The translations under genes and the position numbers were made by a program. Positions 6,845 through 28,174 of a stretch of DNA of 64,000 nucleotides are shown here, in pieces. Below the pieces are notes generated by a model that was given only the letters and a program-made list of their open reading frames with translations, was not told the origin of the DNA and made no database searches. Origin of the DNA: Actinomycetota bacterium (lineage in GTDB: Bacteria > Actinomycetota > Geothermincolia > Geothermincolales > RBG-13-55-18); the NCBI GenBank assembly GCA_030019255.1, contig JASEFK010000006.1:154553-218552 (forward strand). Reading direction: 5' to 3'. Positions within the stretch are counted from its first letter, which is position 1. Every line of letters starts with the position of its first letter.

Positions 6845-8608
6845 ATGACCGAGGACCTGGACCGGATAAGCGAGGCGCGCCGTGCCTGGGAGGAGGGGCC
6901 CCTGGCCAAGGCCCTCCAGAGGTTCCCCTACCTGAACAAGGACAGCTGCCGCTTCTACACTCCCCTGGACATCGAGCCCTTCGACTTTTTGGAGAAGGTC
7001 GGCTTCCCGGGCACCTACCCCTTCACCGCCGGCACCTTCCCCATCGAGCCCATGGCCGGCCTGGCCCGCCTGGCCTCCCTGGCCGGGGGAAAGGGGGAGA
7101 TACCCGGGGCCGGTGGCCAGACCCGCGCCGCCATCTACTCCGGGTACGGCACCCCGGAGGACACCCGGGACTACTACAGGGGCCTTATCGAGCAGGGGGG
7201 ACGGGGAGGTCCCAACCTGGCCTTCGACCTCCCCACCCAGTGCGGCTACGACTCCGACCATCCCCTGGCCGAGGGGGAGGTGGGCAAGGTGGGGGTGTGC
7301 GTGGACACCCTGGCCGACTTCGAAATCATCTACGAACCCTACCGAGGGGACCTCGACCTGGACCGCATCGCCTCCAACTTCACCATCAACGCCCCGGCCA
7401 ACGTGATCATCGCCATGTACGCCGCCCTGGCCGAGAAGCGGGGCATACCCCTGGAAAAGTTGCGGGCCACCCCCCAGAACGACATCCTTAAGGAGTACAT
7501 CGCCCGGGGGACCTATATCTTTCCCCCGCGGCACGCCCTGCGCATGTTCCGGGACAGCCTGGTGTTCATCACCCGCCACATGCCCAACGTGAACATCACC
7601 AGCATCGGCGGCTACCACATCCGGGAGGCCGGGGCCACCCGGGAACAGGACCTGGCCTTCTCCATGGCCATCGCCATCGAGTACCTCAGGGTGGGGGTGG
7701 ATGCAGGCCTCCAGGTGGACGAATTCGCCCCCCGCTTCACCTTCAATGCCTTCGGAGGCTCCATGGAGATGCTCAAGGAGATCGCCTTCCAGCGGGCGGC
7801 GAGGCGCATGTACGCCAGGATACTGAAGGAGCGTTTCGGGGCCCGGGACGAGCGGAGCATGCGCATCCGCCAGGCCCTGGGGGCTCACATCGGGCCCTCC
7901 TCCACCACCCTACAGCGCCCTCTGAACAACCTCACCCGGGCGGTCATCGGGGCGGTGGCCAGCGCCCTCTCCGGCGGCCGGCCCCTCCCCTTCCCTCCCT
8001 ACGACGAGCCCCTAGGCCTGGGGTGGAGCCTGGAGGCCCTCCAGCTGGCCCAGGACGCGGGAAGGATCATCGCCTGCGAGGCGCGGCTCCTCGAGTATGC
8101 CGATCCCTTCGCCGGCTCCTACTGCATGGAGTCCCTCACCGACGAGATCGAGAGCGCCGCCTGGGAGGAGCTGGAGAAGATAGAGAAGATGGGCGGGGCG
8201 GTGGCGGCCATCGAGAACGGCTACATGCAGAGGGAGATATCCCGCAGCGCCTACGAGCGCCAGCGGGCCATGGAGCGGGGGGAGAGGCTGGTGGTGGGGG
8301 TGAACTGCTTCACCGGGGAGCACGAGCTGGAGGTGACCACCAACCGGCTGGTCCCCAACCCCTACGACCCCGAGAGGAGGGAACGGGCGGAGGAGAGGCA
8401 GAAGGCCCGCCTTTCGGAGATCAAAAGGTCCCGGGACAACCGGGAGGTGGCCCGGCTCCTCCGGGAACTGGAGGCCCTGGCCAAGAGGGAGGAGGAGAAC
8501 CTCATCCCTCACCTCATCCAGTGCGTCAAGGCCTACGTGACCGAGGGGGAGATATGCGAGGTGCTGCGGGGAGTCTTCGGGGAGTACCAGGCGGTCTCCC
8601 CCTTCTGA
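6845..8608 (+). CDS. divergent acyl-CoA mutase large (substrate-binding TIM-barrel) subunit, methylmalonyl-CoA-mutase family, lacking a fused B12 domain
   Basis: 587 aa. The first half ...YTPLDIEPFDFLEKVGFPGTYPFTAGTFP...AFDLPTQCGYDSDHP... and the C-terminal half with the acidic/Arg-rich coiled tail (LIPHLIQCVKAYVTEGEICEVLRGVFGEYQAV) match the MCM alpha / IcmA architecture. The canonical FTRG(P/V)Y-P-MY motif is replaced by FTAGTFPIEPM. AAAGGGGGA RBS 4 nt before ATG 6845. The B12 domain is encoded separately at 10937. Confidence 0.75.
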   Translation: MTEDLDRISEARRAWEEGPLAKALQRFPYLNKDSCRFYTPLDIEPFDFLEKVGFPGTYPFTAGTFPIEPMAGLARLASLAGGKGEIPGAGGQTRAAIYSGYGTPEDTRDYYRGLIEQGGRGGPNLAFDLPTQCGYDSDHPLAEGEVGKVGVCVDTLADFEIIYEPYRGDLDLDRIASNFTINAPANVIIAMYAALAEKRGIPLEKLRATPQNDILKEYIARGTYIFPPRHALRMFRDSLVFITRHMPNVNITSIGGYHIREAGATREQDLAFSMAIAIEYLRVGVDAGLQVDEFAPRFTFNAFGGSMEMLKEIAFQRAARRMYARILKERFGARDERSMRIRQALGAHIGPSSTTLQRPLNNLTRAVIGAVASALSGGRPLPFPPYDEPLGLGWSLEALQLAQDAGRIIACEARLLEYADPFAGSYCMESLTDEIESAAWEELEKIEKMGGAVAAIENGYMQREISRSAYERQRAMERGERLVVGVNCFTGEHELEVTTNRLVPNPYDPERRERAEERQKARLSEIKRSRDNREVARLLRELEALAKREEENLIPHLIQCVKAYVTEGEICEVLRGVFGEYQAVSPF

Positions 8609-8740: not shown

Positions 8741-10840
8741 ATGGACGAAGGGCAACCCTTGCCGGTAACCGAGAGGGCAAGTCCCGGACCTGAAACGGCG
8801 AAGCCAGCGGAGGAGGGCGCGCTCTTCCGCTACCCCCTGCACCCCCCGGCGGAACCGCGGACCGGCGATCCCCCCCTGGTGGAGTTCACCCGAGGCCTGC
8901 TGCGCGACCTCCTCTCCATCCTCCGCCTCCGGAGCGAAGGAAGGGAGGTGGAGGTGGAGGGGTTCCGCTTCCTGGGCCCGGATAAGGCGGTGCATTCCAT
9001 CCATGTCCCGCCCCGCGAGGGAGCGGAGGAACTCGAAGATTCCGGGATGGCCGGCCCATCCGCGCCCCGTCCTCCCCTCCCCGGATGCCGGGGGGAACAC
9101 CCGGAAGGAAAGGGAGACCTGGGGGCCGGCTCCGATGCAGTCCCCAGCCCGGGGAAGGGGCGATTCCCTCCCGGCGCGGTAAAAGGACTTTTGGCAAGGA
9201 AAGAGATCTCAGAGGCACCGGTCCGGGAAGGGATCCAGGGCCTCCCGCCCTTCCTCAACCGGGAGAACGCCGCCCTCTACGAGCCCCGGTTGGAGTTTTT
9301 GGCCCGGCTGCTGGAGAACCTGCTCTCCCTGGTGCAGCTGGAGGCCGGAGGTCGGCCGGTGGAGGTGGACGGATTCCGCCTGCGCCGCCTCTCCGACTGG
9401 GCGGACGCCCCGGTGCCGAGCGCCCAGGACGTAATCCTTCACGCCGCCGACCGCTGCTCTTGCCGTTGCCGGTTCTGCTACCTGCGGGGTTCCCCGCCCA
9501 CCCTGCATTACCATCCCCCCTTCGACCCGGGGGACGACTGGAGGAGGCTGGAGGCCAGGATTCGTCACTACCGCCCCCGGGCGCGGCGGGGGCTCTTCCC
9601 CACCTTCGGTGGCCCGCGGGAGCCGTTCGCTCATCCACAAATTCTCCCCTTGCTCCGATCCCTCCGCGAGACCACCGATGAACCCTTGCGCCTCTCCACC
9701 AACGGATGCGCTCTAAGTCCCGATCTCATAAGCGAACTGGCGAAGCTGGCCCCCCTCTTTCTGGACCTCTCCCTCAACAGCTCCGACCCCGCCCGGCGCT
9801 CCTTCCTCATGGGTGACCCCGAGCCGGGGAGGGCCATCTCCTCCCTGCCCCGCCTGGCGGAGGCGGGCATCCCCTTCGCCGTGACCGTGGTGGCCTGGCC
9901 GGAGCCCTCCCTGGAGGAGATGCTGGAGGACCTGGGAAGAACCTGCCTGTACGCCGCGGGTTGCGGGGCCCGCATGGTACAGGTCAACCTGCCGGGTTAC
10001 TCCCGGTTCTTCTCCCCGCGACCCCTCTTCGATACCGACGAGGTGTGGGGAGCCGTGGTGCGGCGGGTGCGGGAACTGCGCCAGGACATCCCCTGCCCGG
10101 TGGTGGTGAGCCCCGCCCTCTACGAGGAAAACCTCGTCCGGGAACGGAAGAACCTTGCGGAGGTGATAGGGGTGGTGCCCAACTCCCCGGCCGCCTCCTG
10201 GGGGCTTGAGCCGGGAGACGTCATCCTCCGCCTGAACGGGATCAACGTGTTTAACCGCCCCCAGGCCCGCGACCTGCTCACCCTTTTGCAGGAGAGCGGG
10301 AAGGGGAGGATGTCCATCCTGGTCGACCGGGGGGGTAAGAGGGTGGAGCTGGAGGGGGAAAGAAGCCGGTGCCGCTACCCCTTCGATTTTCATACCGGGA
10401 CCCACCTGGGGGTGGTGTTCATGGGGAGCGGTCTGCGCCTCTCCTACCTGCGGGACCTGGAGGACCTCATCCGCTCCTCTGGGGCGCGCCGGGTGCTCTT
10501 TCTCACCTCCCGGCTGGTCCGCCCCACCCTCGAACAGATGCTGCGCGAACGCCCGCTGAGCCTCCCGGAGGGCGTGGAGCTGCACTTGAGCGTGCCGGAG
10601 AACCGCTTCTTCGGGGGAAACATCATGCTCGGCGATCTTTTGGTGGTGCAGGACTTCATCGATCACCTCCGGGAGTGGAGGGAGAGGAAGGGGTTTGCGC
10701 CCCACCTGGTGGTCATACCCTCCTCGCCCTTCCGCCTCAGCGGCTGGGGGAGGGACCTGACCGGTCGGGTGTATCTGGACATCGCCCGGGAGACCGGGAT
10801 GCGGGTGGAACTCCTGGAATGCGAGGCGGTCATGGACTGA
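8741..10840 (+). CDS. radical SAM enzyme with internal PDZ domain (DUF512-like radical-SAM/PDZ family), inserted between the mutase subunits
   Basis: CxxxCxxC radical-SAM cluster motif C-SCR-C-RF-C at about 9455-9478 (HAADRCSCRCRFCYLRG). PDZ-like segment EVIGVVPNSPAASWGLEPGDVILRLNGINVFNRPQARDLLTLLQESGKGRMSILVDRGGKRV (about 10150-10330). GGAGGTG RBS 9 nt before ATG 8741. The listed ORF start 8609 (TTG) would add a 44-codon Arg/Gly-rich extension overlapping the hairpin, which is probably not translated. Confidence 0.75.
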   Translation: MDEGQPLPVTERASPGPETAKPAEEGALFRYPLHPPAEPRTGDPPLVEFTRGLLRDLLSILRLRSEGREVEVEGFRFLGPDKAVHSIHVPPREGAEELEDSGMAGPSAPRPPLPGCRGEHPEGKGDLGAGSDAVPSPGKGRFPPGAVKGLLARKEISEAPVREGIQGLPPFLNRENAALYEPRLEFLARLLENLLSLVQLEAGGRPVEVDGFRLRRLSDWADAPVPSAQDVILHAADRCSCRCRFCYLRGSPPTLHYHPPFDPGDDWRRLEARIRHYRPRARRGLFPTFGGPREPFAHPQILPLLRSLRETTDEPLRLSTNGCALSPDLISELAKLAPLFLDLSLNSSDPARRSFLMGDPEPGRAISSLPRLAEAGIPFAVTVVAWPEPSLEEMLEDLGRTCLYAAGCGARMVQVNLPGYSRFFSPRPLFDTDEVWGAVVRRVRELRQDIPCPVVVSPALYEENLVRERKNLAEVIGVVPNSPAASWGLEPGDVILRLNGINVFNRPQARDLLTLLQESGKGRMSILVDRGGKRVELEGERSRCRYPFDFHTGTHLGVVFMGSGLRLSYLRDLEDLIRSSGARRVLFLTSRLVRPTLEQMLRERPLSLPEGVELHLSVPENRFFGGNIMLGDLLVVQDFIDHLREWRERKGFAPHLVVIPSSPFRLSGWGRDLTGRVYLDIARETGMRVELLECEAVMD

Positions 10841-10936: not shown

Positions 10937-11353
10937 ATGGCATCGAAGACGGAGGGCAAGGTCATCCGGGTACTTATCGCCAAGCCCGGTCTTGACGGGC
11001 ACGACCAGGGAGCCAAGGTCATCGCCTACGGCCTCAAGGACGAGGGGTTCGAGGTCATCTACACCGGCCTGAGGCGCACCCCGGAGGAGATCGTCAACGC
11101 GGCCGTGGACGAGGACGTGGACGTCATCGGCCTCTCCATCCTCTCCGGGGCTCACCTGAGCATTGCGCGGCGTGTCATGTCCCTTCTCCGGGAAAAGGGC
11201 GTGGAGGACAAGATGGTCCTGGTGGGAGGCATCATCCCTCCCGAGGACATCCCCAAGCTCAAGGAGATGGGCGTGGCCGAGGTCTTCGTCTCCGGGACCT
11301 ATATCTCCCAGGTGGCGGAATTCATCCGCTCCCGGTTGGGTGTCTCTTCCTGA
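10937..11353 (+). CDS. cobalamin-binding small subunit of an acyl-CoA mutase (B12-binding Rossmann domain)
   Basis: [73 protein letters not shown]... contains the DxHxxG B12 lower-ligand motif (LDGHDQG) and the MCM small-subunit fold. AGGGAGG RBS before ATG 10937. Confidence 0.9.
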
Positions 11354-11401: not shown

Positions 11402-12763
11402 TCAACCCTGGTAGGCACGCACCAGCCTATTCACGTGCTCCAGATTCTCCAGATCCCGCAACATCTCCAAGGTGGAATCGGCGACCCGGTAGCTCAAAAC
11501 GCTCCCCACGCATTCGCGGTATTTATCGTAGATCTGCTCCTCGCTCATGGGATTGCCGGGTTCGCCGAGGGGCCTTTCGGCCTTCCCCACCGCTTTCCCG
11601 CCGGACTTCAGGTGCACTACCACCTCGGAGGCGAAAGGGCTAGTGATCTCCCCTTCCAGGTCCTGCCAGTCGAAGCGGCGTATCACATGCACTATCGGCT
11701 CCGAGGTGACCACCTGGTCCCTGAACTGCCCCACTCCCACCTTGCCCCAAAGCAGGGCGGCGGCCACGCAGAACTCCAGGCTAAACTTTCCCTCCGTGCC
11801 CGTCTTCGGCTCGTGGTAGACGAGCACCGATCGCAACCAGGAGGGCACCCGGCACTCCACCCTCTCCACCTCGGAAGCGTCGATATTTCCCATCTTCTTC
11901 CATTCCTCCCTGGCCGCCAGGGCGGCGTCGATAGCGCCCTGGGGGCCGCGGCAGCAGGGATAGGGCTTGTAGGAGAGACCGGGGTCGATGAGCTCATAGG
12001 GCTCTCCGAGGGTCCCGGGTAGCTCCCCCGCTTTCTCCAGGTCGGAAGTGAAGACCCGGGCGAATCCGTTCTCCCCGTAGAGAGCATCCGGGTTGGCGGT
12101 GAACCCCCGGGAGGCCAGCTGGGCGGCCATAATCCCGTTCATGGCCGCGACTCCGGCGTGGAGGGGCTTGGTCATGGTTCCGAAGTTAGCCCGGATGCCC
12201 GTGGCCAGGGAGCAGGAGATGCCTAGGGCATGGACCATCCTTTCCTCGGCGAGCCGCAGGAGCTTGCCGCAGGAGGCGGCGGCGCCCAGGACCCCCAGGG
12301 TACTGGTATGGTGCCAGCCCAGCATGTAGGAGTTCCCGCCCAGGGCCGCTCCGACCTTGGCTGCTACCTCCAGGCCGGCCACGTAGGCCAGTAGGCAGTC
12401 CCTTCCCGGGGACTCCAGAACCTCCCCCAGGGCCAACACGGCCGGGACCAGGGCCACGGAAGGATGGCCCATCATGCGGAAACTGACGTCGTCGTAATCC
12501 AGGGCGTGGGCGGCTGTCCCGTTGGCCAGGGCAGCCCAGGGTGCCGCGCTTTTCTTGAAACCGTAGAAGAGGGTGGCTTCACCCTTTGCACACATGGAAT
12601 CCACCCACTCGGCGGCGATGCGTGAACTCTCATCCTCCAGGCCGGCTATGGTGACCCCCAGGCAATCGATGAACGGGAGCTTGGCCGCCTCCACCACCTC
12701 TCCCGGCAAGTCCTCGTACTTCAGGCCACAGACGAACTTCCCCACTTCCAAGAGCTCGTTCAT
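11402..12763 (-). CDS. MmgE/PrpD-family protein (2-methylcitrate dehydratase / cis-aconitate decarboxylase superfamily)
   Basis: Minus-strand translation MNELLEVGKFVCGLKYEDLPGEVVEAAKLPFIDCLGVTIAGLEDE...HALDYDDV...GHPSVALVPAVLALGE...TKPLHAG... is typical of PrpD/MmgE. An AAGGGGGG RBS 6 nt upstream supports the ATG at 12763. The listed ORF start 13102 adds about 113 junk codons. Confidence 0.8.
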   Translation of the reverse strand: MNELLEVGKFVCGLKYEDLPGEVVEAAKLPFIDCLGVTIAGLEDESSRIAAEWVDSMCAKGEATLFYGFKKSAAPWAALANGTAAHALDYDDVSFRMMGHPSVALVPAVLALGEVLESPGRDCLLAYVAGLEVAAKVGAALGGNSYMLGWHHTSTLGVLGAAASCGKLLRLAEERMVHALGISCSLATGIRANFGTMTKPLHAGVAAMNGIMAAQLASRGFTANPDALYGENGFARVFTSDLEKAGELPGTLGEPYELIDPGLSYKPYPCCRGPQGAIDAALAAREEWKKMGNIDASEVERVECRVPSWLRSVLVYHEPKTGTEGKFSLEFCVAAALLWGKVGVGQFRDQVVTSEPIVHVIRRFDWQDLEGEITSPFASEVVVHLKSGGKAVGKAERPLGEPGNPMSEEQIYDKYRECVGSVLSYRVADSTLEMLRDLENLEHVNRLVRAYQG

Positions 12764-13099
12764 TTTCGACCCCCCTTGTTCGTTTTTCATACCCTTAACC
12801 GGTATCAACCCGTCCACTTCCCGGCTCCACCCCCGTTGACGCCCCGGGGTTCCGGGGCTGGCCCACGGGAGGGTATACCGGGTACCGCTCACGCATCCAT
12901 GCCCCTTTTCAGATCGCCTCTCGCCCGAAGAAGCCCCCGTCAAACCCCGGATCACCGTAACGGTAGAGGAAGCCGACTCCCGCCCTTTCGAACCGTGGCT
13001 CAACCAATGGTATCCTTTCCACTCCCCTCCGGAAAAGACCAGCAGCCGGAGTGAGGCCACCACGGTTATCGATATGAAACCGAAGCCCAGCCGACACGA

Positions 13100-13480: not shown

Positions 13481-15031
13481 GTGACAACGATGAACGTGGG
13501 CAACTGGGCCACCAAGCGGGCGCTCTTCCCGCTCACCAGGGACAAGACGGCCTTCATCAGCGGTGACCGCTCCCTTACCTACACGGAGTTCAACCACCGT
13601 GTTAATCAAGTGGCCAACGGCTTACTGGAGGCGGGCCTCAAGAAGGGCGAGCGGGTGGCCGCCCTCTTCTTCAACAGCATAGAGTTCATGGAGGTGTACT
13701 TCGCCTGCGCCAAGGCGGGGTTCATCTTCATCCCCCTCAACTTCCGCCTCACGCCCCAGGAGCTGAACGATATATTCACCGACACCAATCCCCGGGCCTT
13801 CTTCTTCCACCCCGAGTTCGCGGGCACGGTGGGACAGCTGCGGGAACTCTACCGCGAACCGATAGAGGTTTTGGCCACCGCCGGGGAGCCAGTGCCGGAG
13901 TTCGCCTCCCCTTACGAGGAGTGGCTCTCGGAATTCGGGGAGGAGGAGCCCGCGGTCCACGAGCCCCCGGGCATGGAGGACCCCCAGATGATCATGTACA
14001 CCTCGGGAACCACCGGGCGGGCCAAGGGGGCCGTGCTCCCCCACCGCAAGACCTTCTGGAACACCTTCAACGACACCCTGGAGCTGCTCTTCGACATGGA
14101 GGCCGTATCTCTGGTCTCCATACCCCTGTTCCACTCCGGGGGCCTGAACATCATCACCATGCCCACCTTCTACATAGGGGGCACCACGATCTTCCAGAGG
14201 TTCTGGAACCCCGAGGAGGCCCTGCGCCTCATCGAGCGCCACCGGGTCACCCACTTCGGGGCCGTGCCCACCATGCTCCAGATGATGCTGGACGTTCCCG
14301 ACTTTTCCCGCTACGACCTGAGCTCCCTCAAGGGGGTGGGGGTGGGAGGAGCCCCCGCCTCCCGGGAGCTTTTGGACCGCATCCTGGAGCGGATGAAGGT
14401 GCCCCACCTCATCCAGGTCTTCGGGTGCACGGAGACCTCCATCGTCCTCTCCTGCTCCAACATGGAAAAGATCGGCAGCGCCGGCATCCCCATGTTCCAC
14501 GCCGAGGTCCGGGTGCTCAAGGAGGACGGCACGGAGGTGGTACCGGGATCCGGCGAGGTGGGGGAGATATGCACCCGGGGCCCCTACGTCATGCTCGGCT
14601 ACTGGAACCTCCCCGAGGAGACCGCCGAGGCCATGAAGGACGGGTGGTTCCACTACGGGGATCTGGCCACCGTGGACGAGGACGGGTACGTATATATCGT
14701 GGACCGCAAGAAGGACATGATCATCTCCGGGGGGGAGAACATCTACCCCGCGGAGGTGGAGAAGGTGCTCGCCGAGCACCCCAAGGTGAGGGACGTGGCG
14801 GTCATCGGCATGCCGGACGAGAAGTGGGGGGAGGTGGGCCACGCCCTGGTGCTCCTGGAGGACCCCGAGGACCCCCTGAGCCTGGAGGAGATGGAGGCCT
14901 TCTGTGCGGGGAAGCTGGCCCGTTACAAGATACCTAAAAAGATCACCTTCGTGGATGCCATCCCCCGCACCCTCACCGGCAAGATATTGAAGAAGGAACT
15001 GCGCAGGCTCTACGGCGGGGGCCGGGATTGA
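13481..15031 (+). CDS. AMP-forming acyl-CoA synthetase / ligase (ANL superfamily)
   Basis: AMP-binding P-loop MYTSGTTGRAKGAVLPH, plus the GYWN...ET, GDLAT...DEDGYVYIVDRKKDMIISGGENIYP and TLTGKILKKELR motifs. 516 aa. Confidence 0.9.
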   Translation: MTTMNVGNWATKRALFPLTRDKTAFISGDRSLTYTEFNHRVNQVANGLLEAGLKKGERVAALFFNSIEFMEVYFACAKAGFIFIPLNFRLTPQELNDIFTDTNPRAFFFHPEFAGTVGQLRELYREPIEVLATAGEPVPEFASPYEEWLSEFGEEEPAVHEPPGMEDPQMIMYTSGTTGRAKGAVLPHRKTFWNTFNDTLELLFDMEAVSLVSIPLFHSGGLNIITMPTFYIGGTTIFQRFWNPEEALRLIERHRVTHFGAVPTMLQMMLDVPDFSRYDLSSLKGVGVGGAPASRELLDRILERMKVPHLIQVFGCTETSIVLSCSNMEKIGSAGIPMFHAEVRVLKEDGTEVVPGSGEVGEICTRGPYVMLGYWNLPEETAEAMKDGWFHYGDLATVDEDGYVYIVDRKKDMIISGGENIYPAEVEKVLAEHPKVRDVAVIGMPDEKWGEVGHALVLLEDPEDPLSLEEMEAFCAGKLARYKIPKKITFVDAIPRTLTGKILKKELRRLYGGGRD

Positions 15032-15290: not shown

Positions 15291-16091
15291 ATGAACCAAG
15301 AAGAGGAGCTCCTGGTGGAGGTGAGGGAGCCCCTGGCCTTCCTCACCATCAACCGGCCGGAGCGCCGGAACGCCCTCTCCGTCTCCCTCCTCGTCTCCCT
15401 GGCCCAGGCCCTCCAGGACCTGGCCGAGAAGGGAACGGTGCGCTGCGCCGTGCTGCGGGGGGCGGGGGACCGGGCCTTCTCCGCGGGCATGGACCTCACC
15501 GCCATCCCCGAGGGTCTCCCCGCGGAGGTCCAGGAGCGCATCCAATCCCAGGGCCCCCTGCAGTACGGCCTGGAGGCCATCGAGGAGTGCCCCTTCCCGG
15601 TCATCGCCATGATCCGCGGCTACTGCGTGGGGGCGGGGTGCGAGACCAGCATGGCCTGCGACCTCCGGGTGGGGGCGGAGGACTGCCGCATGGGGATGCC
15701 CCCCGCGCGCCTGGGCATCGTCTATCCCCCCGAGGGCCTGCACCGCTTCCTGCGCACCATCGGCCTGGCCGCCACCCGGAAACTCTTCCTCACCGCAGAG
15801 CTCTTCGGTGCCCACGAGGCCTACCAGATGGGCATGCTGGACTACCTGGTCCCCGTCCCGGAGCTGGAGGCCTTCACCGAGGATCTGGCCCGGCGCATAG
15901 CCTCCAACGCCCCCCTCTCCATCTCCGGGCACAAGCGCATGCTGCGCATGCTCACCCACCCCCTTCCCCTGGCTGAGGAGGAGCGCCGGGAGGCCGATGC
16001 CATCATGGCGCGGGCCCTGGCCAGCGAGGACGCCCGGGAGGGCATCGCCGCCTTCCGCGAGAAGAGGGACCCGGTGTTCAGGGGTAAATAA
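15291..16091 (+). CDS. enoyl-CoA hydratase/isomerase (crotonase fold)
   Basis: LTINRPERRNALS...LRGAGDRAFSAGMDL...IAMIRGYCVGAGCE... show the classic crotonase oxyanion and catalytic segments. GGGAGG RBS. Confidence 0.85.
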   Translation: MNQEEELLVEVREPLAFLTINRPERRNALSVSLLVSLAQALQDLAEKGTVRCAVLRGAGDRAFSAGMDLTAIPEGLPAEVQERIQSQGPLQYGLEAIEECPFPVIAMIRGYCVGAGCETSMACDLRVGAEDCRMGMPPARLGIVYPPEGLHRFLRTIGLAATRKLFLTAELFGAHEAYQMGMLDYLVPVPELEAFTEDLARRIASNAPLSISGHKRMLRMLTHPLPLAEEERREADAIMARALASEDAREGIAAFREKRDPVFRGK

Positions 16092-16748: not shown

Positions 16749-19241
16749 ATGATGTCGGCGGTTGAGATGCGAACCATCGAGGAGATCGAAAAGAGCGGTC
16801 AGTGGTGGTGGTGGGCGGAACACAAGAGGTCGAAACGCCTGGATTACCTGCGCAAGGCGGTATGGAAAAAGGGGGCCAAGGGCTCCGGTTACCAGCCGGG
16901 AGTGAAGGTGGACCTGGAGAGGGCCGTCCTCTTCACCGAGGCCTTCAAGGCCAACGAGCACGACTCCCTGCGCATGCGCTATGCCAAGGCTCTGGCCAAC
17001 GTGTTCGACAACATCACCATCTTTATCCAGGACCACGCCCAGATCATGGGCTACCTGGGTTCCCGGCCCCACACCATCGTGTGGCACCCGGAGATCCTCT
17101 TTCTGCTCAACGAGGACCTGTATAACGACCGCACGGTCATACCTGAGCCTGTGGATGAGAACCTGAAGCTCATCCGGGAGCTCTGCGACTACTGGAACCC
17201 CCAGACGGCGGGGGCCAAGGTCTTCAACCTGGTCCCACCGGAGGAGATCGTCAAGCTCCTAACCGGGGTTATCGGTTGGGGGCTTCCCATCTCCCGCATC
17301 GGCTACGCCACCAAGCAGTGGGACTACATGTTCCGCTTGGGTCTGGAAGGCATCATAGCTGAAATAGACGAGCGTATTAAGGAGGCCGAGGAACGCATTT
17401 ACAACAAGGTGCCCGATCCCGAGGACCTCCCCTACTACGAGAAGCTTGACGTCTGGAAGTCCATGAAGGTGGTGCTGGAGGCGGTCATCCGCTGGGCACG
17501 CCGCTACAGCCGCCTGGCCAGGATCATCGCCGAGCACTTCGAGACCGACCCCCAGCGCAAAGAGGAGCTCCTGCGCATCGCCGAGGTCTGCTGGAAAGTG
17601 CCAGCCAAGCCCCCGGAGCACCTGCACGAGTCCCTGCAGTTCGACCATTTCATCCAGATTGCCTGCCGCTACGAGGCCTGCGAGGGCGCCTGGCCGGCCC
17701 GCCCCGATTACTGGCACGGTCCCTTCTACGACAAGGACGTCAACCGGGACAAGATCCTTACCCGGGAGGAGGCCCTGGATCTCACCGGAGAGTTCCTCAT
17801 CCGCTGCTACGAGGTGGGATGGTTCTGGTTGATGCTGGCCCGCGACACCCTGCAGGGCATCACCGGGACCTGGGTATGGACAATCGGCGGGGTTAACGAG
17901 GACGGGACCGACGCCTGTAACGACATGACCGACTGCCTGCTGGAAGCGGCCCGCCTGGTACGGGTGGCCAATCCCACCTTCGCCTTCCGTTACCATCCCA
18001 ACGTGAGGATGCAGACCCTGCGCCAGGTCTTCGAGTGCATCCGGCAGGGATTGGGATATCCTTCCATGCGCAACGATCCCATCCTCATCACCAACGCCAT
18101 GCATTGGCACAGGCATCCGTTGCGGGAGGCGCGGCGCTGGGTGCACCAGGCCTGCATGTCCCCCTGCCCGGATACCAAACTGGGATGCCAGCCCTTCCGC
18201 ATGGCCAACGCCACCATCATCGCCGCCAAGGCCATCGAGTATGCCCTATTCGACGGGTACGACAACGTGCTCCAGATGCAGTTCGGACCCCATACCGGGG
18301 ATGCCACAAAGTTCGAGACCTTCGAGGAGCTCTACCAGGCTTGGTACACGCAGATCAAATGGATGATGGACACCCTGGTAAAACTGACTAACGGCGGCCG
18401 CTTCATGGCCCAGTTCCTGGACCCCCGCCCCCTGCTCTCCGGACTCTACGAGCGCTGCGTGGAGCTGGGCGTGGACTCCTCCCATCCCTCGGAGCGCGGC
18501 AATTCCTGGATTACCTTCTTCGCCTGGATGGAGACCGGGGACAGCCTGGCCGCGGTGAAGAAGCTGGTTTTCGACGAGAAGAAGTACACCATGGCCCAGC
18601 TCATCGAGGCTCTCAAGGCCAACTGGGAGGGCTACGAGGAGATGCGCATGGACTTCGTGCGCGCTCCCAAGTGGGGCAACGACGACGACTACGTGGACCA
18701 GATCCACATCCGCTGCCACCGCGACGTGGCCAGGCACTCCTGGGAAATAATGGATCCCACCGGGAATCCCTGGCCTCCGCTGCCGGAGAACATCGCCGCC
18801 TACGTGACCAACGCCACCAAGGTTTGGGCGCTGCCCAACGGGAGGAGGCTTGGCGACACCCTCTACGACGGCGGGTGCTCCCCCGGGGCGGGGCTGGACA
18901 AGAAAGGTCCCACCGCCGTCCTGCGCTCGGTGGCCAAGATCGACCACATCGGGGACGTGCGAGCCACCCTGCTCAACCAGCGCCTGTCCCCCCAGCAGCT
19001 GGCCGGCGAGAAGGGCTTCCACATCTGGCACTCCTACATCAAGACCTGGGCCGAACTGGGTATCGACCACGTGCAGTTCAACATGGTGGACAACGAAACC
19101 CTGAAGGCGGCCCAGAGGGAACCGGAGAAGTATCCCGAGCTCATCGTGCGCATCGCCGGTTACAGCGCCCATTTCGTGGACCTGAACAAGAAGACCCAGG
19201 ACACCATCATCGCCCGCAACGTGCAGGAACTGGGCGTATGA
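16749..19241 (+). CDS. glycyl radical enzyme, pyruvate formate-lyase family; X-succinate-synthase-like (fumarate-adding, AssA/BssA-type) catalytic subunit, inferred
   Basis: 830 aa. C-terminal glycyl-radical motif RIAGYSAHFVDLNKKTQDTIIARNV (about 19155). Candidate thiyl Cys loop QACMSPCPDTKLG (about 18151-18165). The fumarate-adding subtype is inferred from context: two small 4-Cys subunits, ferredoxin-domain activases, and adjacent CoA-ligase, mutase and carboxylase genes. Confidence 0.8.
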   Translation: MMSAVEMRTIEEIEKSGQWWWWAEHKRSKRLDYLRKAVWKKGAKGSGYQPGVKVDLERAVLFTEAFKANEHDSLRMRYAKALANVFDNITIFIQDHAQIMGYLGSRPHTIVWHPEILFLLNEDLYNDRTVIPEPVDENLKLIRELCDYWNPQTAGAKVFNLVPPEEIVKLLTGVIGWGLPISRIGYATKQWDYMFRLGLEGIIAEIDERIKEAEERIYNKVPDPEDLPYYEKLDVWKSMKVVLEAVIRWARRYSRLARIIAEHFETDPQRKEELLRIAEVCWKVPAKPPEHLHESLQFDHFIQIACRYEACEGAWPARPDYWHGPFYDKDVNRDKILTREEALDLTGEFLIRCYEVGWFWLMLARDTLQGITGTWVWTIGGVNEDGTDACNDMTDCLLEAARLVRVANPTFAFRYHPNVRMQTLRQVFECIRQGLGYPSMRNDPILITNAMHWHRHPLREARRWVHQACMSPCPDTKLGCQPFRMANATIIAAKAIEYALFDGYDNVLQMQFGPHTGDATKFETFEELYQAWYTQIKWMMDTLVKLTNGGRFMAQFLDPRPLLSGLYERCVELGVDSSHPSERGNSWITFFAWMETGDSLAAVKKLVFDEKKYTMAQLIEALKANWEGYEEMRMDFVRAPKWGNDDDYVDQIHIRCHRDVARHSWEIMDPTGNPWPPLPENIAAYVTNATKVWALPNGRRLGDTLYDGGCSPGAGLDKKGPTAVLRSVAKIDHIGDVRATLLNQRLSPQQLAGEKGFHIWHSYIKTWAELGIDHVQFNMVDNETLKAAQREPEKYPELIVRIAGYSAHFVDLNKKTQDTIIARNVQELGV

Positions 19242-19305
19242 GGGAGATCGCGTTGAAACCGCCGGTGCTACCACCAGCGGGGTCGCTTGAAAAGGGGGTA
19301 GAGCG

Positions 19306-19605
19306 ATGAGCGACTGGGAACAGCTCCGCCAGCAGTGGCTGCAGGGGGCCATCTCCAAGGGGCGCCGTGATATGCCGGAGAAGGCCTGCGGCATTTGCAG
19401 TAACTTCCGGCAGAATTCGGCCTCCGCGGCCGGTGATGGTTTCTGCACGGCCATCAAGATGGGGGAGAAGAACAAGCCGGTCTTCGACAATACCGATGCC
19501 GCCGACTGCCCGCACTTCCGGGAGATCGACCGCGTGCGGACGGACACCAGTGAGTTCATGTGGGATCCCCAGTTCCGGCCGCAGAGGCAGATCCAGGAGA
19601 AGTAG
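19306..19605 (+). CDS. small 4-Cys subunit, candidate FeS-binding beta-like subunit of the X-succinate-synthase-type GRE
   Basis: 99 aa directly after the GRE gene, with an AAGGGGG RBS. Cys ligand pattern C28-x2-C31-x15-C47-x20-C68, comparable to the HiPIP-like small subunits of benzylsuccinate synthase. It is a paralog-like pattern match to 22139-22294. Confidence 0.55.
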   Translation: MSDWEQLRQQWLQGAISKGRRDMPEKACGICSNFRQNSASAAGDGFCTAIKMGEKNKPVFDNTDAADCPHFREIDRVRTDTSEFMWDPQFRPQRQIQEK

Positions 19606-19623
19606 GAGCAGCAACCGGAGAAG

Positions 19624-19851
19624 ATGGTCACCTGTTCCAGGTGCGGAAGGTCCGGCTCTTTAGCCGAGTTCGCCTACGTGGGGCAGGCCGTGGAGGTGGG
19701 ACCCGTTTCCCTGAGGCGGTGCCCTGCCTGCGGTGAACTCCTGGTCGTGGACGAACTGGAGCTGGAACGGGATGGATCATCATCTCCCGGTCCCTGGGGA
19801 CTGAGCGACATCTGGGGTAGAAAATTTACCTGTAAGAACGGGGAGGTGTGA
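19624..19851 (+). CDS. zinc-ribbon mini-protein, paralog 1 (CxxCG...EF-Y...CPxCG family)
   Basis: 75 aa: MVTCSRCGRSGSLAEFAYVGQAVEVGPVSLRRCPACGELLVVDELE... with two CxxC knuckles. It shares the pattern TC-x-RCG-xxG-x2-AEF-x-[YH]-...-R-x-CP-x-CG with the ORFs at 19855 and 22633. Confidence 0.55.
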   Translation: MVTCSRCGRSGSLAEFAYVGQAVEVGPVSLRRCPACGELLVVDELELERDGSSSPGPWGLSDIWGRKFTCKNGEV

Positions 19852-19854
19852 ACT

Positions 19855-20034
19855 GTGGTCAAGTGCGACAACTGCGGATACCAAGGGGTGAAGTCGGAGT
19901 TCCGTTACCTCTACAACACCACCCTGGACGCGGAGACAGCATACCGCGAATGTCCGCAATGCTACGCCTGGGTGGTGGTCAACGAGCTGCAGGAGGAAAA
20001 GGCCGAAAAGGAGCTCCAGAAGGGAAAAGCCTGA
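19855..20034 (+). CDS. zinc-ribbon mini-protein, paralog 2 (absent from the ORF track; 59 aa, GTG start)
   Basis: GTG at 19855, 4 nt after the stop of paralog 1. Translation VVKCDNCGYQGVKSEFRYLYNTTLDAETAYRECPQCYAWVVVNELQEEKAEKELQKGKA*. It has the same CxxCG...EF-Y...CPxC pattern. The alternate-frame ORF 19848..20234 is low-complexity. Confidence 0.45.
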   Translation: MVKCDNCGYQGVKSEFRYLYNTTLDAETAYRECPQCYAWVVVNELQEEKAEKELQKGKA

Positions 20035-20118
20035 TTCCCCCGTGGGAGTTCACGCTTTTTCCTGTGACGCTTTCCGGCTTCCCCGGCGTGTCGAGAGAAA
20101 CGGAAAAGGAGTCCTTTC

Positions 20119-21057
20119 ATGCCCGAGCAGGTATTAATCACCAACATCCAGCGCTATTCCATAAACGACGGGCCGGGAATCCGCACCACCGTCTTCCTCA
20201 AGGGCTGCAAGCTCAACTGCGCGTGGTGCCATAACCCGGAGTGTATCCATTTTTACCCGGAGATCTACTGGAAGCCCTCGCTCTGCCGGCAGTGCGGGAT
20301 ATGCTTCGACGCCTGCCCGAGGGGTGCCATACAGCCGCCTATTCCGGTAACGGGGGAAGAAGACAACGAGCACTATTACAAGATCGACCTATCTCTATGC
20401 GACCACTGCATGGAGTGCGTGGAGGCCTGCTTCTACGGCGCCCTGGTGAGGGTGGGAGAGCCGAAGACGGTGGAGGAGATACTCGACGAGGTGGAGAGGG
20501 ACATGCCCTTCTACCTGAACTCGGGAGGAGGCATGACGGTAACGGGAGGCGAGCCCACTGCCTTCCCCGAGTTCACCCTCGAGCTCCTGCGCAGAGCCAA
20601 GGAACGAGGGATTCACAACTGTCTGGACACCAGCGGGTTCTGCGCCTGGGAAATCCTGGATTCCCTGCGCCCCTACGTGGACATCTTCCTCTACGACATC
20701 AAGTGCATGAGCGCCAAGCTGCACGTCATGCGCACCGGGGTGAACAACTCGCCCATCCTGGCCAACCTGCGCCGACTGGTGGAGGTGGGAGCCGAGGTCA
20801 TCGTGCGCGTCCCGGTGATTCCCGGCTTCAACGATTCACCGGAGCACATGGAGAGGGTGGCCGATTTCCTCGCCGACCTGGGGTCCTCCATAGTTCGCGT
20901 GGACCTACTCCCCTTTCACAACTGGTGCCAGGACAAGTATCGCTGGCTGGGAAGGGAATGGGAATACCGGGACGTGGAAAGCCTGGCCGCGAGCGAGATA
21001 AGCGACCTGCAGGACATCCTCAAGGAACGCGGGCTGGCGACCACCATCGGAGGATGA
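20119..21057 (+). CDS. glycyl-radical enzyme activating enzyme (radical SAM) with a ferredoxin-like 2x[4Fe-4S] insertion, copy 1
   Basis: N-terminal IRTTVFLKGCKLNCAWCHNPE (the GRE-activase CxxxCxxC). Insertion with two Cx2Cx2Cx3CP motifs (LCRQCGICFDACPRG; LCDHCMECVEACFYG), typical of non-PFL activases such as BssD, CutD and GD-AE. This is followed by the SAM-binding G-rich GGGMTVTGGEP. Confidence 0.85.
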   Translation: MPEQVLITNIQRYSINDGPGIRTTVFLKGCKLNCAWCHNPECIHFYPEIYWKPSLCRQCGICFDACPRGAIQPPIPVTGEEDNEHYYKIDLSLCDHCMECVEACFYGALVRVGEPKTVEEILDEVERDMPFYLNSGGGMTVTGGEPTAFPEFTLELLRRAKERGIHNCLDTSGFCAWEILDSLRPYVDIFLYDIKCMSAKLHVMRTGVNNSPILANLRRLVEVGAEVIVRVPVIPGFNDSPEHMERVADFLADLGSSIVRVDLLPFHNWCQDKYRWLGREWEYRDVESLAASEISDLQDILKERGLATTIGG

Positions 21058-21066
21058 GGCGGTAAG

Positions 21067-21996
21067 ATGGGAAGCGGCGAAACCTCGGGCTACGTCAACG
21101 ACATCCAGTTCTATTCCCTGAGCGACGGGCCGGGGATACGTACCACCGTCTTCCTCAAGGGATGCCTACTCAACTGCCGCTGGTGCCACAACCCTGAAGG
21201 CCACCGCCGATTCCCAGAGGTCCTCCCCTATCGCAACAACTGCACCGGGTGCGGTAAATGCCTGGAGGTGTGCCCCTCCGGGGCCATCGAGATGGAAGGC
21301 CCCTGCCTGCCCCGTATCCGCCGTGAACGCTGCATCGACTGCTTTCGCTGCGCCGAGGCCTGCCCGGAACAGGCCCTTGTGGTGTGGGGAAAGCTGATGA
21401 CCGTGGACCAGGTATTGGCGGAGGTGGAGAAGGACAAGCCCTTCTACAAGCATTCCGGCGGAGGGCTCACGGTTTCCGGCGGAGAACCCCTGGCCCAGCC
21501 GGAATTCACTCATGATCTCCTGGCGGAGGCCAGGGCAAGGGGAATGAACACCGCGCTGGATACGTGCGGGTTCGCCCCCTGGGAAGTGCTGGAAAAGGTG
21601 CTGCGCGTCGCCGACCACGTGCTCCTGGACCTCAAGCACATGGATTCCGCGGCGCACCGCGCCTACTGTGGGGCTCCCAACGATCTCATCCTTGCCAACG
21701 CCCGGCGCCTGGCGGAAGAGGCCCGCGAGCTGCGCTTCCGGATCCCCCTCATCCCGGGCTTCAACGACGGGGAGGAAAACCTCGCCCGCACGGCGGATTT
21801 CATTCGCGGGTTGTGCCGCAATGGGAAGGAATGCGAGGTGGACATCCTGCCTTATCACCCTTACGCCGGAGCCAAGTACCGCATCTTCGGACTGGAATAT
21901 CCCTTCCCGCGGGGAGAGGGATACCCCGAGGAAAAGCTGTGCGGAATTGTGAAGATCTTCACCTCCCGGCGTCTCACGGTCACCGTGGGAGGTTGA
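21067..21996 (+). CDS. glycyl-radical enzyme activating enzyme with a ferredoxin-like insertion, copy 2 (tandem paralog)
   Basis: IRTTVFLKGCLLNCRWCHNPE; ferredoxin motifs CTGCGKCLEVCPSG and CIDCFRCAEACPEQ; GGGLTVSGGEP. Collinear with copy 1. Confidence 0.85.
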   Translation: MGSGETSGYVNDIQFYSLSDGPGIRTTVFLKGCLLNCRWCHNPEGHRRFPEVLPYRNNCTGCGKCLEVCPSGAIEMEGPCLPRIRRERCIDCFRCAEACPEQALVVWGKLMTVDQVLAEVEKDKPFYKHSGGGLTVSGGEPLAQPEFTHDLLAEARARGMNTALDTCGFAPWEVLEKVLRVADHVLLDLKHMDSAAHRAYCGAPNDLILANARRLAEEARELRFRIPLIPGFNDGEENLARTADFIRGLCRNGKECEVDILPYHPYAGAKYRIFGLEYPFPRGEGYPEEKLCGIVKIFTSRRLTVTVGG

Positions 21997-23181: not shown

Positions 23182-23967
23182 TCAGTCCGGCAGCGGGGCG
23201 AGATCGCCCGCGGACACCGGGAGGACCTTCCCCCCCACCTCGAGCAACAGGTTGCCCAGCTCGTCGACCCCCACCAGAAGGCCCTCGAGTAGCGCGCCCC
23301 TCCTTTCCGGCGCCACCTCCCCTTCCTCCCGACCTCCGCGCCTCAGGCCGCATATGACAAAATCTTCCACCACTACCTGCCGCCCGCGGTAAGCCAGGTT
23401 GGCGCGGTATTCCTCCACCAGGTTTCTCCCCTCCTCCCGCAGCCGATTTTCCATTTCGCCGAGAAGGGCGTGCAGAAGTTCCTCGACGCCCCAGAGCCTG
23501 CCTTCCTCCAACAGCAGGGAGGTGGGCGGAAGCCGAGCCGGAAAATTCAACTCCTCCGGCAGGTACCCGACGTTTAAACCCAGGCCCACGATGAGGAAAT
23601 GGTCCCCGTCCCGGCGGAAGGACTCGGTGAGCACGCCCCCCACCTTTCTGTCCCCGTAGACCAGGTCGTTGGGCCACTTGCAGAGGGGCCCCGCACCTCC
23701 CAGCCTCCTCACCGCCGCCCGGGCCGAGAGCGCCGCCAGCGCCGCGGCACGGAAGGGCTCCACGTCCCGGAGTGCCAGGCTCACCAGAAGGCTCTTTCCG
23801 GGTCGGTCCAGCCAACTCCGGTCCATCCTCCCGCGTCCCGCCGTCTGGTGGACCGCGGTCACCACCAGCCCTTCCGATGCCCCCCGGGCCAGGAGCCTCC
23901 TGGCCTCCAGGTTGGTGGAGTCCAGGCTCTCGTAACGACGCACGTCCCAATGGATATCACTGCCCAA
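23182..23967 (-). CDS. birA: biotin--[acetyl-CoA-carboxylase] ligase, group I BirA without an N-terminal HTH
   Basis: BPL catalytic domain ...LDSTNLEARRL...VVTAVHQTAGRGRMDRSWLDRPGKSLLVSLAL... (GRGRxxRxW biotin-binding loop). The listed ORF start 24234 runs into the bioY coding region. The in-frame TTG at 23967 is preceded by GGAGGT and gives a 262-aa group I enzyme. Confidence 0.7.
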   Translation of the reverse strand: MGSDIHWDVRRYESLDSTNLEARRLLARGASEGLVVTAVHQTAGRGRMDRSWLDRPGKSLLVSLALRDVEPFRAAALAALSARAAVRRLGGAGPLCKWPNDLVYGDRKVGGVLTESFRRDGDHFLIVGLGLNVGYLPEELNFPARLPPTSLLLEEGRLWGVEELLHALLGEMENRLREEGRNLVEEYRANLAYRGRQVVVEDFVICGLRRGGREEGEVAPERRGALLEGLLVGVDELGNLLLEVGGKVLPVSAGDLAPLPD

Positions 23968-24125
23968 GGCGACGAGACCTCCGCTGGGTAGTGGCCCGAC
24001 CTTCCCGCAATCAGCACGGTTGCGGGCTGGAAGGGCGGCTGCTCCGCCACGCTTCACGCTGCCGGGGTGCGCTTCCCGCTTCGTTTCGAGAGCCGGGGCG
24101 ACCCTCGAAACCGATTTTTCATAAA

Positions 24126-24141
24126 GTTCACCTTTACTAAA
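24126..24141. promoter_or_regulatory. third copy (15/16) of the motif GTTCACCTTTACTAAA, upstream of the bioY-carboxylase operon, next to a near-consensus -35
   Basis: Read directly. TTGACA at 24162-24167 lies about 20 nt downstream of the motif, and the bioY ATG is at 24220. Confidence 0.45.
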
Positions 24142-24219
24142 CTTAAATTCCGCGTAACCTATTGACAATGCGCATGTTTTCCTATACAAATATAACAAAC
24201 TTCCAAAGGAGAGAAACCC

Positions 24220-24822: not shown

Positions 24823-24987
24823 GGGCCGCGGAAGGCATCCGGATTTACCCGGTGAATTTACACGGTGTAGCGTGGGTCTTCCGGGAAAGCGAAGGGCTTT
24901 ACCGCCGGGAAAGCCGTGCTTCATGAAAATAAGGCGCGGGAAAGATTACAATGGTTTCGAAGGCCCGAATCCGGTGAAGGGGTGAAA

Positions 24988-26829: not shown

Positions 26830-26833
26830 AAAC

Positions 26834-28174
<1,341 letters not shown>

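Follow-up and report, generated by a model that had tools for sequence, protein, structure and literature searches.

In anaerobic alkane degradation, the steps that follow addition of the alkane to fumarate (CoA activation, epimerisation, rearrangement and decarboxylation) were proposed in 2002, and in the literature searched they are assigned by annotation alone, as in 'putative methylmalonyl-CoA mutase'. Ethylmalonyl-CoA mutase (Ecm), a single fused polypeptide, interconverts 2-alkylmalonyl-CoA and 2-alkylsuccinyl-CoA in which the alkyl group is methyl. In genome papers the usual candidate for the rearrangement step is 'methylmalonyl-CoA mutase (mcmLS/mcmA)' (PMC6776118, PMC9576796, PMC5606693, PMC6163223), and ass cluster 1 of D. 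alkanexedens ALDC is reported to encode large and small mutase subunits together with a LAO/AO (MeaB-type) ATPase and an MmgE/PrpD protein (PMC7180275). In actinonin and matlystatin biosynthesis, ActD/MatB (with MatQ) is the proposed mutase from hexylmalonyl-CoA to 2-pentylsuccinyl-CoA, on genetic and labelling rather than enzymatic grounds (PMC5719088), and IaaGH acts as phenylsuccinyl-/benzylmalonyl-CoA mutase when Aromatoleum degrades auxin anaerobically (PMC8360864). Here we analyse a stretch of 64,000 nucleotides from an Actinomycetota bacterium (GenBank assembly GCA_030019255.1, contig JASEFK010000006.1, positions 154,553 to 218,552; hereafter the window), in which the genes at 6845–8608 and 10937–11353 encode what is, as read from sequence, a two-subunit adenosylcobalamin (AdoCbl)-dependent acyl-CoA mutase. 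It stands apart from methylmalonyl-CoA mutase (MCM) in a clade of its own and is the best candidate for the unproven carbon-skeleton rearrangement.

The features of the mutase are as follows.

6845–8608, + strand: large (catalytic, TIM-barrel) subunit of a split AdoCbl-dependent acyl-CoA mutase (PF01642, TIGR00641, exact match to WP_458011114.1, clade monophyly)
7022–7150, + strand: rebuilt N-terminal CoA strand and insert, through TRAAIY to Tyr98 (alignments; column set by 5REQ Y89F)
7466–7636, + strand: catalytic and substrate motifs ATPQNDILKEYIARGTYIFPP and GGYHIREAGA (alignments to solved mutases)
7736–8026, + strand: clade-specific motif replacements (FTFNAFGGSME against LSFF-WGIGMN; GAHIGPSS against HxQTSG; RPLPFPPYDEPLGLGW against QSLHTNSxDEAxxLP)
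10937–11353, + strand: B12-binding small subunit (TIGR00640 168.9 bits against a cutoff of 57.45; DxHxxG motif reading DGHDQG, nucleotides 10994–11011)

The large-subunit gene runs through 587 amino acids in one unbroken frame, with a purine-rich, Shine-Dalgarno-like AGGGAAAGGGGGA directly 5' of its ATG, and its product is 100% identical to WP_458011114.1, named in the database 'methylmalonyl-CoA mutase family protein [Candidatus Solincola sp.]'. A first-pass annotation of the window had assigned it the architecture of an acyl-CoA mutase with a B12 partner at 10937–11353, and both assignments are borne out. The Pfam family MM_CoA_mutase (PF01642) matches at 5.9e-137 (457.8 bits against a cutoff of 22.1) across profile positions 10–512 of 512, TIGR00641 scores 482 bits (cutoff 303.8), and the small subunit carries the His-on B12 motif. 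The NCBIfam equivalog for MCM, NF006944, failed for both subunits (390.8 bits for the large and 127.5 for the small; cutoff 876), the MCM beta-chain model TIGR00642 matched weakly (126 bits against a cutoff of 617) and PDB chain 1e1c_B also matched. The best solved match was HcmA (4r3u_A), with an E-value of 1.8e-108, or 6.6e-129 using a clade profile. The clade motif occurs once in the window, a second large subunit being absent from the 64 kb.

The closest database relatives share 66–95% identity, are about 580 amino acids long, all have the unusual N-terminus and come from Actinomycetota, Thermodesulfobacteriota, Bacillota, Chloroflexota and others; a motif scan (DEPLGLGW plus TQCGYDSD, one genome per GTDB species) found at least 578 stretches encoding a relative. 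For the tree and alignment, 85 full-length clade members and the window protein were set against the P. shermanii and human MCMs and HcmA (from PDB alignments), S. meliloti BhbA and nine further plasmid or chromid mutases, with split as well as fused types among the plasmid-borne ones. The clade of 86 proteins was monophyletic, and apart from all MCMs, in 100 of 100 neighbour-joining bootstraps. The window protein shares at least 56% identity with each clade member and at most 42.5% with any outgroup, and the median identity within the clade is 58%. Placement inside an ordinary MCM clade, the outcome that the first-pass annotation had named as fatal to its reading, was thus not what the tree returned; the window mutase groups instead with the homologues from ass/mas clusters. 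In a 50%-identity library of 1.84 billion proteins, scores fell from 916 bits for a clade representative to 511 and 494 bits, for sister lineages with partial signatures, and then to 400 bits or less for proteins with canonical motifs. On these comparisons the clade is a distinct, biochemically uncharacterised branch of the acyl-CoA mutases. A plasmid collection held no clade member, all its matches being below 41% identity and serving as outgroups, and the best 120 matches of a third homologue search, seeded from a Desulfatibacillum metagenome-assembled genome (MAG), were nearly all MAG proteins, with none from cultured alkane degraders.

Several motifs that are fixed elsewhere in the family have been replaced in the clade (MCM positions are numbered as in P. 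shermanii, by profile and pairwise alignments to solved mutases). HxQT (328–331) is lost, the window protein reading GAHIGP, and QSLHTNS (361–367) has become xPxxFPP, the window protein reading RPLPFP; HxQT and QSLHTN are kept in MCM, HCM and most other outgroups. At columns conserved in the outgroups the clade shows the point changes S114N, H122Q, R123C, V163S/S164N, I196P, Q246R and S285T, and F287 is replaced inside a one-residue insertion (FNAFGGSME), together with I290G and G291S. Among the outgroups, an unrelated split mutase of Paraburkholderia largidicola PPGU16_p1 (L094, 4001–5569) keeps Tyr89 and Arg207 and has Ala243, Gly328, Val330, Phe364 and Cys366, and may represent another uncharacterised mutase type.

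The canonical N-terminal strand, (F/Y)TRG-x-Y-x-TMY-xx-R-x-WT-x-RQY, is not present in the window mutase. The corresponding strand reads FTAGTFPIEP (residues 60–69, nucleotides 7022–7051) and is followed by a variable, Gly-rich insert of 23 residues, MAGLARLASLAGGKGEIPGAGGQ (residues 70–92, nucleotides 7052–7120), and directly after it by TRAAIYSGYG (residues 93–102). The strings quoted in the first-pass annotation sit at these positions, and its description of the signature as non-canonical stands against the FTRG/TMY pattern of the outgroups. HMMER pairs YPFTAGTFPIEP with a segment of the HCM large subunit 4r3u_A and places the gap opposite the Gly-rich stretch. The difference goes beyond chance: at the position of the insert, all 85 full-length clade members have 13–26 residues, against exactly 4 in every one of the 11 outgroups whose N-terminus is available. 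The FTRG arginine is alanine in 74 of the 85 and TMY..RxWTxRQ is missing from the clade, while the RG core is kept in the outgroups with an N-terminus (n = 11; one has RS) and TMY-type residues in 9 of them. An additional seven Gly-rich residues of the insert are confined to actinobacterial clade members. The same annotation had taken this segment for a specificity region, which is right as to its divergence; for the most part the segment is the strand that binds CoA and leads up to Tyr89 (residues 75–87 of P. shermanii MCM, which line the CoA channel), and Tyr89 and Arg207 are themselves MCM-like.

In MCM the free carboxylate of succinyl- or methylmalonyl-CoA is bound by Tyr89 and Arg207, and His244 helps the rearrangement along; mutases whose substrates lack a carboxylate have other residues in place of the Tyr89/Arg207 pair. 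Alignment with the structurally characterised mutases, which the first-pass annotation had proposed as a check, shows these specificity residues conserved (Y98 and R221) beside the divergent N-terminal strand. Tyr98 corresponds to Tyr89, the column in which PDB chain 5REQ (P. shermanii Y89F) has Phe, and YIARGTYIFPP pairs with FMVRNTYIYPP, placing Arg221 at Arg207. Within ATPQNDILKEYIARGTYIFPP, Thr209, Gln211 and Arg221 correspond to Thr195, Gln197 and Arg207 of MCM; in GGYHIREAGA, compared with SGYHMQEAGA, Tyr257 and His258 correspond to Tyr243 and His244 and a clade-specific Arg260 replaces Gln246; D387/E388 correspond to Asp369/Glu370. The equivalents of Tyr89, Gln197, Arg207, Tyr243, His244 and Asp369/Glu370 are invariant or nearly so in the 85 clade members, which in the column-by-column alignment also retain Gly91 and Thr195. 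The pattern of the ICM, HCM and PCM types (non-Tyr at 89, Gln at 207) is not seen, and an HCM-like identity, considered with HcmA as the best PDB match, was rejected because the window protein has Tyr and Arg where HcmA has Ile and Gln. Since the MCM-like Tyr/Arg pair is conserved, the substrate should carry a free carboxylate.

The genes around the mutase are as follows.

8741–10840, + strand: radical SAM/PDZ/DUF512 protein between the mutase subunits (Pfam; CX3CX2C at nucleotides 9455–9478)
11402–12790, − strand: MmgE/PrpD-family protein (Pfam; PDB 2hp0, iminodisuccinate (IDS) epimerase, 4.3e-62)
13481–15031, + strand: AMP-forming acyl-CoA ligase, AssK-like candidate for alkylsuccinate activation (AMP-binding 2.9e-89; NF004837 500.7 bits against a cutoff of 476)
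15291–16091, + strand: crotonase-family protein, candidate decarboxylase or hydratase (NF008506 193 bits, under the cutoff of 257; PDB 1ef8 2.3e-35)
16749–19241, + strand: catalytic subunit of (1-methylalkyl)succinate synthase (MASS), MasD/AssA homologue (PDB 9o8u_A, E = 0, 1128 bits; Pfam PFL-like and Gly_radical)
19306–19605, 19624–19851 and 19855–20034, + strand: three small Cys-rich open reading frames (ORFs), candidate synthase small subunits (position only)
20119–21057 and 21067–21996, + strand: two tandem glycyl radical enzyme (GRE) activases (TIGR02494 344.8 and 332.9 bits against a cutoff of 174)
24916–26829: pyruvate carboxylase, PYC_OADA and biotinyl subunit
26834–28174: pyruvate carboxylase, biotin carboxylase subunit

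MasD, the two activases, the AMP-ligase, the crotonase and the PrpD-like gene all lie inside 13 kb, the MasD homologue 8 kb downstream of the mutase with the ligase, crotonase and activases around it. The fumarate-adding role given to the neighbouring GRE in the first-pass annotation is upheld, the match to MasD being well above that to the benzylsuccinate synthase alpha subunit (1.8e-166); in databases the GRE is just a 'pyruvate formate lyase family protein'. The three Cys-rich ORFs, equal in number to the small subunits of MASS (PMC13450708), are assigned by position only, because Pfam gave no significant match. The PrpD-like gene probably starts at Met105 or Met114 of a long ORF running to 13102. 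The next-best solved relatives of its product are IRG1 and cis-aconitate decarboxylases, the NCBIfam PrpD models for 2-methylcitrate dehydratase score far under cutoff, and the protein is a putative alkylsuccinate epimerase. Methylmalonyl-CoA decarboxylase (MMCD; 1ef8) is within the top 10 PDB matches of the crotonase. MeaB, carboxyltransferase and family-III CoA-transferase homologues were not detectable in the window; two related loci (L001, L010) have a carboxyltransferase, so decarboxylation may here use a crotonase-type decarboxylase. A scan of the whole window with Rfam gave zero matches, so that a cobalamin riboswitch or other RNA element does not explain regulation.

The genes at 16749–21996 (+ strand) make up a complete mas/ass-type alkane-activation cluster in Ca. 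Solincola, a hot-spring lineage of Actinomycetota, and hydrocarbons, fumarate and glycyl radical enzymes go unmentioned in the paper that described a new Ca. Solincola species in 2026. The activases are followed immediately downstream (23182–28174) by a biotin-protein ligase (− strand) and the two-subunit pyruvate carboxylase, which may provide oxaloacetate and, from it, the fumarate needed for alkane activation. Some 35 kb from the mutase (42303–45193, + strand), a CCG/4Fe-4S protein and an N-terminally extended acyl-CoA dehydrogenase may take part in the beta-oxidation of the rearranged acyl-CoA.

Neighbouring genes were counted at 84 related loci, over ±10 kb where available. The B12 small subunit was found at 53 of these, and the PrpD-like gene, the commonest neighbour after it, at 48; there followed the crotonase (32), AMP-ligase (28), MeaB (24), family-III CoA-transferase (22) and radical SAM/PDZ gene (20). 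A MasD homologue lies within 10 kb at 16 loci and a GRE activase at 15, about a quarter of the loci being ass/mas-linked, and this linkage is spread over three separate subclades. The subclade of the window (with L001, L006, L008, L010 and L012 among its loci) has the order mutL-rSAM-B12S-..., and a second has the order B12S-mutL-MeaB-PrpD-activase-MasD (L038, L066–L070 and L073; Desulfatibacillum, Desulfonema, Smithella and others). The third includes a cultured alkane degrader, Desulfosarcina alkanivorans PL12 (L056). Members adjacent to MasD occur in Desulfatibacillum (L073, L067, a MAG among them), Desulfonema (L038) and Desulfobacterales (L001, L010, L066), and Smithella members (L062, L063) adjoin a GRE activase. 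Other subclades, namely Dehalococcoidia and the loci linked to TRAP transporters, have no ass genes in view. The first-pass annotation had taken the divergent signature as pointing to branched alkylsuccinyl-CoA, and this step of its argument fails: the signature is clade-wide, including members of Dehalococcoidia and TRAP-linked loci without ass genes, and has no ass-specific column, so that by itself it does not indicate alkylsuccinyl specificity. Its use as an alkane-specificity marker was rejected on the same ground.

Tandem paralogues occur within the clade, with four large-subunit genes in a row at one Dehalococcoidales locus (L069, 1748–9300) and two at several other loci; L004, L030, L054 and L080 are among the loci with such arrays. 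They suggest substrate diversification within the clade where ass genes are not in view, and argue against a housekeeping MCM role. A module free of any GRE was found in three Logan contigs (L002, L003 and L096), comprising TetR, the PrpD-like gene, AMP-ligase, TRAP DctPQM, crotonase, radical SAM/PDZ gene, large mutase subunit, B12 small subunit and CoA-transferase; its content points to the import and breakdown of a free dicarboxylate, possibly a substituted one. One clade member carries the NCBI label Ca. Methanosuratincola, an archaeal label that may be a binning artefact.

We lean, with modest confidence, towards the reading that the window mutase converts (1-methylalkyl)succinyl-CoA to (2-methylalkyl)malonyl-CoA in an anaerobic alkane pathway. 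The role proposed in the first-pass annotation is therefore kept as the likeliest, although it is already the standing hypothesis of the field and a plain MCM activity retains some probability. In the proposed pathway, MasD would join the alkane to fumarate and the AMP-ligase would form the CoA thioester, with the IDS-epimerase-like PrpD protein possibly epimerising the product before or after thioester formation. The mutase would then act as in MCM: homolysis of the Co–C bond would give the 5'-deoxyadenosyl radical, which would take a hydrogen from the methylene beside the free carboxylate, and the thioester carbon would migrate. Tyr98 and Arg221 would clamp the free carboxylate while His258 acts on the thioester carbonyl, and the rebuilt N-terminal strand, the insert and the altered barrel motifs would accommodate the branched alkyl substituent on the migrating carbon. 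Finally, the crotonase or a carboxyltransferase would remove the carboxyl group, and the resulting 4-methylalkanoyl-CoA would enter beta-oxidation. What the sequences themselves show is family membership, the conserved carboxylate clamp with His258, the His-on B12 motif, the separateness of the clade and the gene context; the substrate and the enlargement of the channel for a branched alkyl chain are what we infer in this scheme.

A number of observations weigh against this assignment. The AlphaFold2 model (from a 23-sequence clade alignment) has a mean predicted local distance difference test (pLDDT) score of 71.6, with residues 43–100, 350–358 and 387–395 below 50; these are the signature regions, so an enlarged pocket is not something that the model shows. 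The Tyr89/Arg207/His244/Gln197 set is what succinyl-/methylmalonyl-CoA needs, and a plain MCM fits it equally well. About 75% of the examined loci have no ass genes within 10 kb, some clade members have TRAP dicarboxylate transporters as neighbours, and there is no column of the alignment in which the ass-linked members are set apart from the others. An MCM is also required by alkane degraders for turning propionyl-CoA back into fumarate, and the searched literature has no paper reporting (1-methylalkyl)succinyl-CoA activity for any clade member.

The window mutase could accordingly be an ordinary MCM of a deeply diverged split lineage, serving fumarate regeneration here and the conversion of imported succinate to propionate at the TRAP-linked loci, a reading that we judge unlikely but, with the carboxylate-binding residues unaltered, take seriously. 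Every residue known to hold succinyl- or methylmalonyl-CoA is conserved, the biotin ligase and pyruvate carboxylase just downstream fit anaplerosis or fumarate regeneration, and the database name, the TRAP DctPQM-type transporters beside some clade members and the grouping of mutase, crotonase (MMCD-like) and CoA-transferase or ligase, which mirrors the sbm operon, all point the same way. Against this, the NCBIfam MCM equivalog threshold is missed by a wide margin, the protein is placed outside the MCM clade in every bootstrap, and FTRG..TMY..RxWTxRQ, HxQT and QSLHTN, invariant in most or all outgroups, are replaced; moreover, arrays of up to four paralogues and the steady PrpD/IDS-epimerase-like partner, which has no role in the methylmalonyl-CoA pathway, sit poorly with it. 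The similarity to the MCM beta chain (TIGR00642, 1e1c_B), weak as it is, and the loss of several canonical motifs would suit a catalytically inactive structural subunit, like MutA of P. shermanii, or a decaying paralogue. This we find scarcely credible, given that the catalytic Tyr, His, Arg, Gln and Glu are invariant in 85 members from many phyla, which together with the median identity within the clade indicates strong purifying selection, and given that the protein has its own dedicated B12 subunit in a window without any other large subunit.

A mutase for some other carboxylated acyl-CoA (methylsuccinyl-/ethylmalonyl-, aryl- or cycloalkyl-succinyl-CoA), or a broad substituted-succinyl-CoA mutase for which alkane substrates are one use only, would account for a clade-wide signature without an ass-specific column and for the many members in Dehalococcoidia, Chloroflexota and Syntrophorhabdus in which ass genes are not in view. 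The dicarboxylate TRAP transporter and AMP-ligase of some modules suggest uptake of a free diacid, and all known substrates of the MmgE/PrpD family are substituted succinates. Precedents exist in IaaGH (PMC8360864) and ActD/MatB (PMC5719088). The window gene itself lies inside a complete mas/ass cluster, however, so that the substituted succinate available in the cell is alkylsuccinate, and we regard this alternative as distinctly unlikely here; it overlaps the (1-methylalkyl)succinyl-CoA assignment more than it contradicts it.

The radical SAM/PDZ protein between the two subunits (699 amino acids counted from Met45 of its ORF, and 100% identical to P0121) belongs to a small family of 113 proteins (E ≤ 1e-10 among 5.8 billion), none of them functionally named. 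Counterparts were located in four further loci.

L001, 6333–8198: radical SAM/PDZ counterpart
L002, 7961–9880: radical SAM/PDZ counterpart
L095, 7001–8851: radical SAM/PDZ counterpart
L096, 7001–8923: radical SAM/PDZ counterpart

In the places examined, the radical SAM/PDZ gene adjoins, often overlapping, a crotonase gene wherever that flank was covered, and in most of them it stands by a clade mutase module; at three of four additional places looked up, its neighbours include genes for a clade mutase, B12 subunit, PrpD-like protein and CoA-transferase. It is found in ass-linked and TRAP-linked modules alike and is frequent, though not invariable, where MeaB is absent. A strict substitution for MeaB was rejected as a rule, because L001, L013, L021 and L095 carry both. 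As an accessory, the protein might load or repair the cofactor, replacing the MeaB chaperone or working alongside it, or might be a radical epimerase acting on the substrate. A more elaborate and quite improbable proposal is that the clade is a dedicated substituted-succinyl-CoA mutase subfamily with a rebuilt CoA/substrate channel, in which the radical SAM/PDZ protein would be an obligatory accessory within the window subclade and the PrpD protein would supply the alkylsuccinate diastereomer.

The functional idea is not new, since the 'mcm' genes of ass clusters are already published candidates (PMC7180275, PMC6776118, PMC5606693). The literature searched yielded generic 'mcm' annotations only, with neither the clade, nor its signature, nor a characterised 'alkylsuccinyl-CoA mutase', and both the definition of the clade and its conserved radical SAM/PDZ partner appear undescribed in the searchable literature. 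The mutase encoded in ass/mas clusters, rather than being an ordinary MCM, is part of a sharply bounded clade with TQCGYDSD, FNAFGGSME, PFPPYDEPLGLGW and the N-terminal insert as diagnostic features, which provide a sequence marker for sorting candidate pathway mutases from housekeeping MCMs in metagenomes. Hot-spring Ca. Solincola offers a compact, possibly thermostable gene set for heterologous reconstitution, and the radical SAM/PDZ and IDS-epimerase-like PrpD proteins, conserved and unexplained partners, could account for the missing steps. If the substrate assignment is true, the range of B12 mutases extends to long, branched alkylsuccinyl-CoAs; if the protein is a plain MCM, the clade would still show how far the active-site shell of MCM, held to be 'invariant', can be replaced.

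Compared with MCM (P. shermanii MutB and human MMUT; PDB 1REQ, 2XIJ), the window mutase shares the fold, the family, the expected radical chemistry and the B12 DxHxxG motif, and conserves Tyr89, Arg207, Tyr243, His244, Gln197, Thr195 and Asp369/Glu370. It differs in being only 34–37% identical, in being split where MCM is fused, and in its rebuilt CoA strand with insert, the loss of HxQT and QSLHTN, and the changes S114N, H122Q, R123C and Q246R. HcmA (PDB 4R3U) resembles it in the split into large and small subunits and aligns over the full length, but keeps the canonical N-terminal strand and HxQT/QSLHTN and, with Ile89 and Gln207, takes a non-carboxylated substrate. The mutase + crotonase-family decarboxylase + CoA-activating enzyme set of E. 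coli Sbm-YgfD-YgfG-YgfH (ScpABC) recalls the window locus; its mutase is of another clade, the window crotonase falls under the MMCD cutoff, and the window adds the PrpD-like and radical SAM genes.

Among systems for substituted succinates, the ass cluster of D. alkanexedens ALDC, compared by its published gene content, is similar in the B12 subunit, the PrpD-family protein and the ass genes round the mutase, and matches the gene order of the second ass-linked subclade. The window differs from it in having the radical SAM/PDZ gene between the subunits, in that MeaB was not found in the 64 kb, and in coming from a hot-spring actinobacterium (Ca. Solincola). IaaGH, compared by description only, is likewise catabolic, acts on a bulky 2-substituted succinyl-CoA and comes from an anaerobe, where it shares its operon with genes for CoA ligase, CoA transferase and the solute-binding component of an uptake system. 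ActD/MatB, also compared by description, is split and HCM-like and has a medium-chain alkylsuccinyl-CoA, but serves biosynthesis, works physiologically in reverse and belongs to aerobic actinomycetes; a split mutase from Streptomyces among the outgroups (L087, whose orthology to ActD is not shown) retains every canonical motif and is placed outside the clade. The nearest characterised reaction, likened to the window mutase by reaction only, is that of Ecm/MeaA from Rhodobacter sphaeroides, of which the proposed rearrangement would formally be a long-chain version.

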